A stretch of DNA of 64,000 nt from Treponemataceae bacterium (GTDB lineage: Bacteria; Spirochaetota; Spirochaetia; Treponematales; Rectinemataceae): positions 2,080,001-2,144,000 of the forward strand of contig CAXXVZ010000003.1 of NCBI GenBank assembly GCA_963678065.2, in the 5' to 3' direction. The notes under the pieces are model-generated. The model was not told where the DNA came from and made no database searches. It saw only the letters and a list, made by a program, of their open reading frames with translations. Position 1 is the first letter of the stretch. Each line of letters begins with the position of its first letter. The translations under genes were made by a program, and so were the position numbers. Shown here piece after piece: positions 54,722-59,860 of the stretch.

Positions 54722-54964
54722 TGTAAAGTGTTATCATCGATAGAAGCACTTGTCAAGCCAATATCGATATCGAGGCCTGAACGCAAAAACGATGAGGATT
54801 CAGCGGGTGATTCAAGGGATTGACATGATTGGAAACCGATGGGTTGCCTTGAATAAAATGATATCATCGATACAGCCCATTTTCTGCTTTGCTTCATGTA
54901 CTCGCGCCCGGTCACATATCGGCATATCTATACAGAAGGGAGCCTCGGCCTATACACTGGCGCG

Positions 54965-56470
54965 GTGAAGAAAAGCCTCTTTCTGTTATATGTTTTCATC
55001 GCCTCCTTCGGCGCTGGTCTGTATGCCCAATCAGAAGCCTCCCTGCCAGAATTTTCTCCTCCCGAATGGAAGTATGGAATGATAGGACAAGGCGATATCG
55101 TGAAGACAAAGGTCGTAGCAACCAACCGGGCTGCCCTGTCGGTGAAATTGACCTTCGTGCCCACTTGTACCTGTTTGACTGTTTCGCCCGAGACACAGAC
55201 AATTGCGCCGGGAGGTTCGGCGACATTCGCCCTGAGCTTCGACTCGAAGGACTATGAGGGAAAAACACAACGCGCATATATCGTAAAAACCGACGTCTCC
55301 GGCGCGAAGCCCCTTTATTATCTCTTGAGCGGCGTAGTGCGCGTAGACAGACCGGCGAGCAACGAAACTCCCCTATCAGACAACGCTGGAGTGAGACCGG
55401 CGAGCACGAATTCGATCGTGGCACAATATTATTATACGCTTGGCTGCCATTCCTGTGAGGATTTTCTCTCCGTCGAGATTCCGAATTTCGAGGCGCGGTA
55501 CGGAATCCGCATATCGCTTGATCGACGCGATCTTTTGGACCCGTCGGTCTACGAAGAGCTCGCTGCCTTCGCCTCGTCCAGAGGAGTCCCGATAAAAGCC
55601 ATACCTGTGCTTCGGATCGGAAATGAGCTCCTACAAGGAGAAGAGGAGATTCGCGATCGTCTGCCAGGCCTGCTTTTGTCGCGAAACACTAAGGCAGCTT
55701 CCGAGGTCTCAGGCGGCACATCCGCCCTCACCGAGACCTCAGCCTCGGCGCAGGGAATTTCAGCGAGCTTGGCCGCTCTTCCCGTAATGGCTGCTGGTCT
55801 CATCGATGGCGTCAATCCCTGCGCTTTTACAACCCTCGTCTTTCTTCTTGCATCTCTCGCCCTCGCAGGGAAGGGCCGACATGAGATCCTCATCATTGGC
55901 GCCCTCTTTTCGTTAGGCGTCTTTTTGACCTACATGGGCATAGGATTCGGCCTTTTCGCTGCGCTGCGGGCAGCAGGCGCTGTCGCTCTCGTATCGACTA
56001 TCATACGTTGGGTACTTGTCACGGCCCTTGTCATGTTGGCAGCCTTGAGTGTCTACGATTATACACGAATAAAGGCAGGCAAAGCCTCCGAGATTCTGCT
56101 CCAGCTCCCGAACTCACTGAAACTCAAGATCCACGCGTCGATCCGTACCAGGGTCAGAACGGCCGCCCTCGCTGGTTCCTCCTTCGTCTTAGGTTTCTTC
56201 GTGTCGATATTTGAGTTCGCCTGTACGGGACAGGTTTATCTGCCGACTCTCGCATACCTCGCGCGAACGAAGGGAAAATCCAATTCTGTTCTCCTCCTCG
56301 TTCTATACAACCTATGCTTCATCGCACCACTCCTCGCCGTATTTGCGGCGAGTTATCTCGGGGTAAGTTCGAAGAGGATAGGAGCGGTTTTCCAGAAGCG
56401 CATGGGAGCGGTTAAGCTGGGTCTGGCCATCGTGTTTCTCGGTCTCGCTGCGCTGACACTGTTCAGTTAA
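54965..56470 (+). CDS. DUF1573 Ig-like + thioredoxin-like + CcdA/DsbD-type membrane protein
   Basis: GTG start with signal peptide; PTCTC, CHSC, DGVNPCAF and EFACTGQVY motifs. Confidence 0.78.
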   Translation: MKKSLFLLYVFIASFGAGLYAQSEASLPEFSPPEWKYGMIGQGDIVKTKVVATNRAALSVKLTFVPTCTCLTVSPETQTIAPGGSATFALSFDSKDYEGKTQRAYIVKTDVSGAKPLYYLLSGVVRVDRPASNETPLSDNAGVRPASTNSIVAQYYYTLGCHSCEDFLSVEIPNFEARYGIRISLDRRDLLDPSVYEELAAFASSRGVPIKAIPVLRIGNELLQGEEEIRDRLPGLLLSRNTKAASEVSGGTSALTETSASAQGISASLAALPVMAAGLIDGVNPCAFTTLVFLLASLALAGKGRHEILIIGALFSLGVFLTYMGIGFGLFAALRAAGAVALVSTIIRWVLVTALVMLAALSVYDYTRIKAGKASEILLQLPNSLKLKIHASIRTRVRTAALAGSSFVLGFFVSIFEFACTGQVYLPTLAYLARTKGKSNSVLLLVLYNLCFIAPLLAVFAASYLGVSSKRIGAVFQKRMGAVKLGLAIVFLGLAALTLFS

Positions 56471-56534: not shown

Positions 56535-56572
56535 AAAAAAAGGGCCGCAAGATTTCCCTTGCGGCCCTTTTT
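56535..56572. terminator. Bidirectional intrinsic terminator ending the spc/alpha operon
   Basis: AAAAAAAGGGCCGCAAG-ATTTCC-CTTGCGGCCCTTTTT. Confidence 0.92.
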
Positions 56573-56627
56573 GCGCTGACGCTTTCGTGGCATCAGGCAG
56601 AAGATATTCCGGATGACGCCTGGCAGA

Positions 56628-56798
56628 CTATTTTGCGTTGGCGAGTGTGGCTTTGCAGACCTTGCAGATCTTGGTCTTTTTGCCTTCTACTTCCTGTTCG
56701 TACAGGACCTTGACGCCTTCCCTCTTGCAGACCGGGCAGGTAGCGCGACCGGAAGCGGGGGTCTGCCTGAGGCCTTTCCCACGATGGGCTTTAGACAT
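56628..56798 (-). CDS. 56-aa basic zinc-ribbon-like protein, last gene of the alpha operon
   Basis: MSKAHRGKGLRQTPASGRATCPVCKREGVKVLYEQEVEGKKTKICKVCKATLANAK; AGGAG SD 7 nt upstream. Confidence 0.85.
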   Translation of the reverse strand: MSKAHRGKGLRQTPASGRATCPVCKREGVKVLYEQEVEGKKTKICKVCKATLANAK

Positions 56799-56820
56799 GC
56801 TGGTACTCCTCGAGGCCCGA

Positions 56821-57255
56821 TTACTCGGCCTTGTTCGTGGCCGCTTTGGCCTTTTTCTCAGTCTTTCGCTTTTCGCGATCGGCTTTCTTGTCGTCTTCCT
56901 TGCGGTCCACGAGCTCGAGGATCACCATGTCGGCTGCATCGTGCTTGCGGAATCCCACTCTGAGGATGCGAGTGTAGCCACCGTTGCGCTCCTTGAAGCG
57001 CGGGCCGATATCCGTAAACAGCTTGGCAAGGATGGCTTCATCCTGGATTTTTTTCGCGGCAATGCGGCGGTTGTGGACGGAATCCTCTTTTGCCCTCGTG
57101 ATCATCTTTTCCGCGGCTCTCCGGGCTTCGATAGCCTTGGCTCTCGTGGTGACGATCCGCTCGTGTTTAAAGAGCACAGTCATCATGTTCCGGATGAGGG
57201 CCTTCCTGTGGGCCGGTACCCGGTTCAGCTTGTTAAACCCGATCTTATGCTTCAT
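56821..57255 (-). CDS. rplQ: 50S ribosomal protein L17
   Basis: HRKAL, I.TT..KA, R.GGYTRI, D.A.M..LELV. Confidence 0.97.
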
Positions 57256-58300
57256 CGGTCTCTTCCTTCTTCATCGAGAGTTTCAGATAACTTCTGAGGG
57301 CCGAATAATCCGTCATGCCGAGACCGAGGTTCCACTCGTTGAGTTTGTCCTTGATCTCCTGGAGGGACTTCTTGCCAAAATTGCGTGTCTTGGCGATATC
57401 GTCCTCTGTCTTTCTGGTAAGATCGCCGATGGACTTGATGTTGGCGTTCTTGAGGCAGTTCGAGGACCTCACCGAGAGTTCCAACTCCTCCACCGGAGTA
57501 TTCAGGATCTGTCTGACGCGCTCTTCGATCTCATCGTTCTGATCGTCGCCACCGAGCTCGCCTTCGTCGAAGTTGACGAAGATAGCAAAATGATCTTTTG
57601 CTATCTTGGCGGCCTCCGCGAGAGCATCTTCCGGCTTGACCGACCCATCAGTCCAGATTTCGAGCACGAGTTTGTCGTAATCGGAACGCTGTCCGACCCG
57701 GGTGGGCTCGACGCTGTACTTCACTTTCTTGACAGGCGAAAAGATCGAGTCCATGGGAATGGTTCCCACGATCTCGATATACTTCTCGTTGACTTCGGAC
57801 GGCACATAGCCGCGTCCCAGATCCACCTGTATTTCGATATCCAGATGGGCTTCTTTCATGAGTGAAGCTATCTTGATGCCGGGGTTGAGTACGTCAAGAT
57901 TCTTGTCTTTTCCAAAGAACTCGCCCGTGAGCGTCTCCATCCCCTTTATTTCATAAAGGAAAGTGGCCTGTTCTTCGTCGTTCGGAAGGCGAATCCTGAG
58001 CTGTTTGAGATTGTTGATAACTTCGATCGTGTCTTCGACGACTCCCGGAATCGTCTCGAACTCGCTCGTAACAACATGCTGCGCGCCCTCCGCATCGTAG
58101 CGAACTATCCGGACTGCCGAAATAGCGTAGCCCTGGATCGAAGAGAGGAGGATGCGGCGCAGCGTATTGCCTACGGTGGTACCGTAGCCGGGCTCGAAGG
58201 GATATGCGAGGAACTTGCCGTAGTCGGGTCCCGACTCGCTCTGCTCGTACGTTATGCCTTTCGGCCTCTTAAAACCCTTCAGTAGGTTCTTCCGCGCCAT
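57245..58300 (-). CDS. rpoA: RNA polymerase alpha subunit
   Basis: [41 protein letters not shown]. Confidence 0.97.
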
Positions 58301-58309
58301 CACGGCTCC

Positions 58310-58945
58310 TTATTTCGAATAGAGCTCAACTACGAGCTGCTCGCGGATATCCGCCATATCGGTGATGTCCTGGCGATGCGGATACGCACAGAGTTTTCCG
58401 GTCATATTGTCGACGTCTACCTCAAGCCAGGGCATAACACCGGAACGTCCGACTTCCTGGAGAGCATCTTTGATGAGGTCCATCTTCTTCCCGGAGGCGA
58501 GGATACCGAGCTTGTCTCCTTCCTTGACGGAATAGGAGGGGATGTTCACGCGTTTTCCATTGACCGCGACATGTCCATGCAGGACAAGCTGCCTGGCCTG
58601 AGCCCTGGAGGAAGCGAAGCGGAGTCTGTACACCACGGTATCGAGCCTGCGCTCGAGAAGAATGAACAGATTTTCGCCGGTTTTGCCTGGCATGCGGAGG
58701 GCTTTCTGGAAGGTATTGCGGAACTGAGCCTCCATAAGGCCATAAGACCGCTTCAGCTGTTGCTTCTCGCGCAGCTGCACGGCGTAGTCCGATTTCTTTC
58801 CGAGACGCGCCTTCGGGGCCTTCCCCGGCGGGAGGGCTTTCTTGTTGATGGGGCACTTGTCGCTCTTGCAGCGAGCACCCTTGAGAAACAATTTCTTCTG
58901 CTCGGTGCGGCAAAGCCTGCACACGGGTCCAGTATAACGGGCCAT
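58310..58945 (-). CDS. rpsD: 30S ribosomal protein S4 (Cys-containing N-terminus)
   Basis: MARYTGPVCRLCR, QLREKQ, LERRLD, ARQLV.HGH. Confidence 0.97.
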   Translation of the reverse strand: MARYTGPVCRLCRTEQKKLFLKGARCKSDKCPINKKALPPGKAPKARLGKKSDYAVQLREKQQLKRSYGLMEAQFRNTFQKALRMPGKTGENLFILLERRLDTVVYRLRFASSRAQARQLVLHGHVAVNGKRVNIPSYSVKEGDKLGILASGKKMDLIKDALQEVGRSGVMPWLEVDVDNMTGKLCAYPHRQDITDMADIREQLVVELYSK

Positions 58946-58962: not shown

Positions 58963-59343
58963 TCAGATACGACGGGCTTTGCGGGGCCGGCACCCGTTGT
59001 GGGGAATGGGCGTGACGTCGTTGATCGTCTTGACTTTGAGACCGAGGGCGCCGAGCTGCCTGATGGCAGACTCGCGACCGATTCCAGGTCCCTTGACATA
59101 GACGTGGACTTCACGAAGACCCACAGTGAGCGCTTTCTGAACCGCGGTTTCAGCTACGGTTTGCGCGGCGAAGGGGGTGGACTTCTTTGCGCCGCGGAAT
59201 CCATGTCCGCCCGAGCTCGACCACGATATCGCGTTGCCCTTCAGATCCGTAATGGTGATGATGGTATTGTTGAAGGTCGCCTGGATGTAGACGTTGCCTT
59301 CATATACACTCTTTTTCTCTTTCTTCTTCTTTGCGACTGCCAC
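58963..59343 (-). CDS. rpsK: 30S ribosomal protein S11
   Basis: [26 protein letters not shown]. Confidence 0.97.
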
Positions 59344-59358
59344 TTTACGCCCCTTTGG

Positions 59359-59730
59359 TTACACGGCCTTCTTCTTGTTGGCCACGGTCTTTCTCTTACC
59401 CTTACGGGTGCGGGCGTTGGTCCTGGTCCGCTGACCATTGACCGGCAGGCCCCTGCGATGCCTCAAGCCCCTGTAACAACCGATGTCCATGAGGCGCTTG
59501 ATGTTGAGCGCCGTGAGCGAGCGAAGCCGACCCTCAACCATGTAATCGCTCTCGATCACCTTGCGGAGTTCGTTGACTTCCTCGTTCGAAAGATCATTGA
59601 TCTTTTTCGCGGGGTCAATCTTTGTGGTCTCGCAGATCTTGCGGGCGCTGGTCCTTCCGAGCCCGAAGATGTATGTCAATGCGATTTCCACGTGCTTGTT
59701 CGGGAGGTCTACTCCCGCTATACGTGCCAT
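59359..59730 (-). CDS. rpsM: 30S ribosomal protein S13
   Basis: [29 protein letters not shown]. Confidence 0.97.
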
Positions 59731-59746
59731 GAGCTACCTCCTCCCC

Positions 59747-59860
59747 TCAGCCTTGCTTCTGCTTGTGCTTGGGGTTTTCGCAGATGATGCGGACGATACC
59801 GTCGCGCTTTATCACCTTGCACTTGTCGCATATCTTCTTGACGCTAGTCCTAACTTTCAT
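59747..59860 (-). CDS. rpmJ: 50S ribosomal protein L36 (Zn-binding type)
   Basis: Manual translation [37 protein letters not shown]; below the ORF-track length cutoff. Confidence 0.97.

Follow-up and report, generated by a model that had tools for sequence, protein, structure and literature searches.

What is encoded by the short open reading frame (ORF) that closes the alpha operon of ribosomal protein genes in a group of spirochaetes? The question is raised by a 64,000-nucleotide stretch of the genome of a Treponemataceae bacterium (GenBank assembly GCA_963678065.2, contig CAXXVZ010000003.1, positions 2,080,001 to 2,144,000; named here the window) that carries such an ORF at positions 56628..56798 of the (-) strand, directly downstream from rplQ. 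Its translation, family match and predicted fold define the product as a basic protein of 56 amino acids that belongs to the TP0214 family (PF27208), has the four-cysteine (C+) form and is a candidate ribosomal protein. The reading that we favor, with a probability of roughly 58%, is that the gene encodes a putative structural protein of the ribosome, dispensable and restricted to certain lineages. On balance, and with slightly less assurance, PF27208 would be an undescribed bacterial ribosomal protein of most Spirochaetia (including the treponemes of syphilis and periodontal disease) and of Cloacimonadota, scattered in Bacillota and Chloroflexota. It would add a further member to the zinc proteins of the ribosome that exist in C+ and cysteine-poor (C-) forms, having shed its ligands along with bL28, bL31, bL32 and bL38 in a zinc-sparing lineage and having been lost where it was not converted.

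The ORF is a real gene. Differences among 39 copies from the same order amount to 0.30, 0.22 and 0.59 at the three codon positions, a distribution showing that the ORF is protein-coding. Codon usage is uninformative in this case (19% of random 56-codon windows score equally high), and the (+) strand ORFs 56613-56963 and 56638-57297 that overlap the gene were set aside as antisense shadows. The protein contains 10 Lys and 4 Arg against 4 Glu and no Asp (pI ~10) and its cysteines are spaced as C21-x2-C24-x20-C45-x2-C48; translation thus bears out the charge count and the CxxC-X20-CxxC motif of the preliminary description of this locus, made by a model from the DNA letters. That description considered the protein unannotated. 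It is already covered by Pfam, in an entry (PF27208, “TP_0214”) newer than our local Pfam copy, in which the ORF protein has no hit over cut-off (nor does it in NCBIfam), and it remains correct that this family is uncharacterised. A search with the single ORF protein sequence retrieved 361 homologues; the precomputed PF27208.1 assignment is found on the query (Atlas score 0.98) and on all 120 homologues among the matches listed. The copy of genome G094, identical letter for letter to the published Tp0214 sequence of Treponema pallidum, shares 59% identity with the ORF protein over 56 residues (E 1e-22). Judged by this identity and by its position after rplQ, the ORF protein is the orthologue of TP0214. 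TP0214 and TDE0793 of Treponema denticola are likewise found directly after rplQ (TP0213 and TDE0792, respectively). The window's copy keeps the four cysteines, and Tp0214 has C-T-S-G at those positions. Many treponemal homologues carry long acidic Ala/Glu/Pro-rich C-terminal tails (loci L007-L041 and others), which are missing from this copy.

PF27208 is an already known family without assigned function, and TP0214 is a hypothetical protein in print. Our literature search, which covered mainly open-access papers and part of their supplements, found no functional assignment or ribosome association for the family. Tp0214 had the highest normalized spectral abundance factor in one T. pallidum proteome (PMC5015957); in a more recent proteome its abundance was not high (PMC10600179). 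It was also detected by mass spectrometry in three out of three in vitro samples at 0.19-0.70 times the intensity of bL32, a ratio to be read with caution because intensities compare poorly across proteins (PMC11077495). Its transcript was grouped with ribosomal genes among those higher in rabbits (PMC8525777), and expression of TDE0793 moves with that of rplQ in one condition (PMC3914990).

One observation that bears on a ribosomal role is the behavior of the cysteines. Six of 140 grouped copies of the family carry C-T-S-G, C-T-S-A or C-S-S-A in place of the four cysteines. The bL28 protein was read in 60 genomes, hand-picked and enriched for C- copies and for genomes without the TP0214 gene; states were set by eye in seven of them (G282, G015, G029, G302, G445 and G455 as C+, G094 as C-T-S-G). 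In this hand-picked set the two proteins agree in 40 of 42 genomes, both being C+ in 27 and C- in 13. The discordant genomes are G094 (a C- copy with C+ bL28) and G455 (a C+ copy with C- bL28). Where the TP0214 gene is absent, bL28 is C- in 12 genomes and C+ in six. We place no weight on a Fisher test of the 27/1/1/13 table (p 7e-9), since the genomes were chosen by hand and are related to one another. The switch reaches other ribosomal proteins: bL38, the only ribosomal protein of spirochaete type that is proven, has a single cysteine in 6/6 tested genomes in which both the TP0214 protein and bL28 are C- (C-/C- genomes), four in the genome of the window (G000), G029 and G094, and two in G325; bL31 and bL32 are C- in G430 and G534, and bL33 only in G430, while uS14 remains C+. 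The ligands of ClpX and DnaJ, inspected as controls in five C-/C- genomes, are kept. On the sequences compared, the TP0214 family thus changes in the manner of abundant zinc ribosomal proteins in a lineage that spares zinc, a pattern already known (PMC3087516). Two points weigh against giving this correlation its full value. The cysteine switch probably amounts to only one or two evolutionary events: all 14 C- copies join in the family tree, and in the species tree (930 columns, FastTree) the C-/C- genomes fall into two groups, one weakly supported. The switch is also not exclusive to ribosomal proteins, the zinc-binding domain of the primase DnaG having lost cysteines (SPF...YCFS/A) in four of the five C-/C- genomes (G309, G447, G534, G430; L329-L332).

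The position of the gene also bears on this question. The order rpoA-rplQ-ORF is found in 40/40 loci of the same order, as anticipated for treponemes in the preliminary description. The synteny does not extend across Spirochaetota: rplQ is immediately upstream in 0/46 loci of other Spirochaetia, 0/32 of Cloacimonadota and 0/24 of Bacillota/Chloroflexota (0/102 in total). Outside the order the gene is mostly stand-alone, and a sigma-70-like promoter of its own precedes 40/45 copies from other Spirochaetia (shuffle mean 1.95) versus 1/40 same-order copies, a contrast indicating that the gene was probably captured once by the alpha operon. In nine of the 40 same-order loci the end of rplQ and the start of this gene overlap by 17 nt. 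Stand-alone copies in other Spirochaetia are often found near an M48 peptidase gene (12 loci, L106-L136) or a Mur ligase gene (10 loci, L099-L138), and in Bacillota the neighbours of the gene are unrelated to translation.

Carriers of the family were counted with a narrow and a broad profile. The narrow profile matches 49/301 genomes of the phylum, among them all 40 of this order, and outside the class gives only three weak matches, one real and two (G049, G056) due to chance. With the broad profile, 228/301 Spirochaetia genomes carry the family, almost always in one copy, and whole families are without it. One of these (f6, 0/31 genomes) is taken as Borrelia-type because its genome G158 encodes the bL38 known from the Protein Data Bank (PDB). 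Elsewhere the family is found in 60/81 genomes of Cloacimonadota (the phylum of G558), 2/201 of Chloroflexota (the phylum of G555), 17/145 scored genomes of the family of G557 (six unscored) and 21/251 of the class of G556, each count including the seed genome. In Cloacimonadota, too, a carrier almost always has a single copy. Named loci with members come from Clostridium, Metabacillus, Anaerolineae and Cloacimonadota, and named proteins from Paenibacillus. By these profile matches the family is near-core in two lineages, Spirochaetia and Cloacimonadota, and sporadic elsewhere, including Bacillota and Chloroflexota, so the earlier proposal of a spirochaete-specific protein does not hold. The copy of Bacillus sp. 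FJAT-29814 seems frameshifted near its start (L081:4001-4105), and two matches per genome are found in several Bacillota (G559, G855, G903, G1003, G1059, G1159, G1222). When the 74,591 six-frame segments of the window's genome were all scanned with a profile, no paralogue of the ORF was found, and bL28 ranked outside the top 25.

The ORF protein is small, basic, single-copy and conserved like ribosomal proteins, and most of the invariant residues of its family are basic or glycine. Residues 21-55 are predicted to fold as a treble clef (zinc knuckle, beta-hairpin and helix) around one zinc ion, a topology that departs from the zinc ribbon initially proposed. The protein is present in no PDB entry. 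In the comparisons made it had no match to a standard ribosomal protein, in line with the preliminary description. Homology to bL28 (PF00830) was rejected at the sequence level, there being no Pfam hit and an hhalign probability below 3%, equal to the null, even after removal of the bL28 hairpin columns; the genome encodes its own bL28. The resemblance between them is of another kind: a treble-clef-like core, predicted for the ORF protein, may be common to both (the structural match to the ORF model is weak and spans 38 residues), both families have C+ and C- forms with replacements alike (C-x-x-T/S, S-x-x-A/G), and their divergence is similar. Unlike the ORF protein, which has an N-terminal basic tail instead, bL28 has a long internal basic hairpin, and its cysteine pairs are separated by ~41 residues in this genome compared to 20 (C24 to C45) in the ORF protein. 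The bL28 of several Spirochaetia families has a Gly/Lys-rich hairpin insertion of ~12 residues, both in C+ and in Borrelia-type C- forms (L170, L172, L183-L187, L239-L246). As for eL43, eL37, eL24 and bL33, names that automatic labels give to homologues, chains of eL43 match the ORF protein only at E 0.4-2.7 over ~20 residues, and neither Pfam nor NCBIfam gives a hit over cut-off.

The closest precedents are bL38 and bS22 of Borrelia, small, basic and long unannotated like the ORF protein, which were found only by cryo-electron microscopy density and mass spectrometry (PMC10618245). Identity with bL38 (BB0162) was rejected: the ORF protein scores 1.3 bits against the bL38 family profile, the two are unrelated in sequence, Borrelia-type genomes are devoid of the TP0214 family and the genome of the window has a separate bL38 homologue (L350:2056-2226 (+), equivalent to G000:C3:1090056-1090226; E 2.4e-10) with four cysteines and no local Pfam hit. 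This protein was present in 9/9 Spirochaetia tested and was not found with the same query in one Cloacimonadota genome. Its gene lies on the same strand upstream of the bL28 gene, at ~230 nt in G447 (G447:C94:57489-58052; L352, L228) and at ~930 nt in G094 (G094:C1:383917-385175; L351, L180). Zinc in bL38 is not mentioned in the main text of the Borrelia paper (PMC10618245). The only spirochaete uS4 recognised among PDB matches belongs to Borrelia (8fmw), a lineage without the TP0214 gene. If the broader reading of PF27208 is the right one, the protein would have been missed so far because no carrier's ribosome has been solved.

Part of these observations can be accommodated differently. The product might act only transiently on ribosomes, in assembly, maturation or hibernation, perhaps on the 30S subunit near the KsgA step. 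In 14/32 Cloacimonadota loci ksgA follows directly, at 49-122 nt (a further locus has it at 1.5 kb), an Era-like GTPase is found inside 6/142 loci, the scattered occurrence in Bacillota is compatible with an accessory role and the Tp0214 intensity was below that of bL32 in 3/3 samples. The family tree suggests that the ksgA linkage arose in one lineage of Cloacimonadota, and none of 86 spirochaete loci was found to have ksgA; size, tail and C+/C- forms also appear more like those of structural ribosomal proteins. We thus regard a transient factor as unlikely. A slightly stronger contender, and yet a doubtful one, is a nucleoid-associated or general nucleic-acid binder, such as a GATA-like finger or an Lsr2-like dimer, that would share the expression of ribosomal proteins only because demand for it scales with growth. 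The Lsr2 match of Tp0214 in a 2026 modelling study is of low confidence according to its authors (PMC13749626); identity of the Lsr2 dimerisation domain to the query is 7%, and the four-cysteine site of the latter has no stated counterpart. A ribosomal role accounts more simply for capture by the alpha operon, linkage to ksgA and a cysteine switch in common with bL28 and bL38.

An RNA polymerase-associated zinc protein, also put forward in the preliminary description, appears improbable. The gene lies two positions after rpoA in 40/40 same-order loci and some homologues bear the automatic labels “RPABC4/Spt4” or “Elf1”, but these labels are inconsistent, others reading L37AE, L33 or L24. RPABC4/Spt4 and Elf1 are zinc ribbons, in contrast to the knuckle-hairpin-helix topology of the model. 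Among the immediate neighbours inspected outside this order, named by eye and with Pfam for a subset, no rpo gene was recognised, and nothing was found in favor of this alternative beyond the proximity of rpoA. The least probable reading is that the protein simply stores zinc or acts as a cationic antimicrobial peptide. A prediction of antimicrobial peptides placed Tp0214 14th out of 68, with no signal-peptide entry for it in the table (PMC9200625). A single-copy, slowly evolving housekeeping pattern does not fit such a peptide, and the persistence of C- forms implies that the essential function is something other than binding zinc.

In the window, the gene is preceded on the same strand by rplQ (bL17; 56821..57255 (-); PF01196 E 8e-37, TIGR00059), by a gene that we take to be rpoA (RNA polymerase alpha; 57245..58303 (-)), by rpsD (uS4; 58310..58945 (-); PDB uS4 matches, best E 1e-65), and by genes that are presumably rpsK, rpsM and rpmJ (58963..59860 (-)), followed further upstream by what we assume to be secY and the spc cluster. 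A gap of 22 nt separates the rplQ stop from the ATG of the ORF, and a Shine-Dalgarno sequence, GAGGAG, was read 7 nt 5' of the latter (56806..56811 (-)). A hairpin similar to intrinsic terminators, identified by sequence reading and folding, is found at 56535..56572, 55 nt past the ORF end; it has an 11-bp stem, a GAAA loop, a U7 tail and T-runs on either side. The 113-nt stretch containing it folds with z = -5.7, none of 200 shuffles being as stable, and the hairpin is absent from the list of a consensus terminator scanner. The hairpin is predicted to stop the ribosomal protein operon and, since T-runs flank both sides, it can also terminate the convergent gene 54896-56470 (+), which probably shares it. 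The product of that gene is a membrane protein of 524 amino acids; it contains a CxxC motif and a DUF1573/Ig-like domain, and its C-terminal half is hydrophobic. The ORF is probably co-transcribed with the rplQ operon, as initially proposed, and the gene arrangement is as first described. Two 151-nt lake metatranscriptome contigs spanning the rplQ-ORF junction were not counted: contigs reveal neither the strand nor whether one transcript covers both genes, and they may derive from DNA.

If the gene indeed encodes a structural ribosomal protein, its N-terminal tail (K3, R6, G7) together with R18, K30 and K46 would grip the rRNA backbone, and a single copy per ribosome would stabilise an rRNA contact, a role like that of bL38 and bS22 in their own lineages, with the 50S slightly favored as the subunit. 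In this order the alpha operon would have gained its last gene by capture of a formerly stand-alone one that had a promoter of its own, and one group of Spirochaetia would have shifted to zinc-poor ribosomal proteins, the gene there losing three of its four zinc ligands or vanishing. Both the family and its position downstream of rplQ had been noted before; what is added is the function proposed from sequence comparison and the comparative evidence itself. Small basic proteins whose cysteines switch with those of bL28 could be screened cheaply as candidate ribosomal proteins, bL38 being an example. If correct, the proposal would name the function of one conserved hypothetical protein of T. pallidum, add a new protein of at least two deep lineages to the inventory of the bacterial ribosome, and predict additional density in any ribosome map from treponemes or Cloacimonadota.
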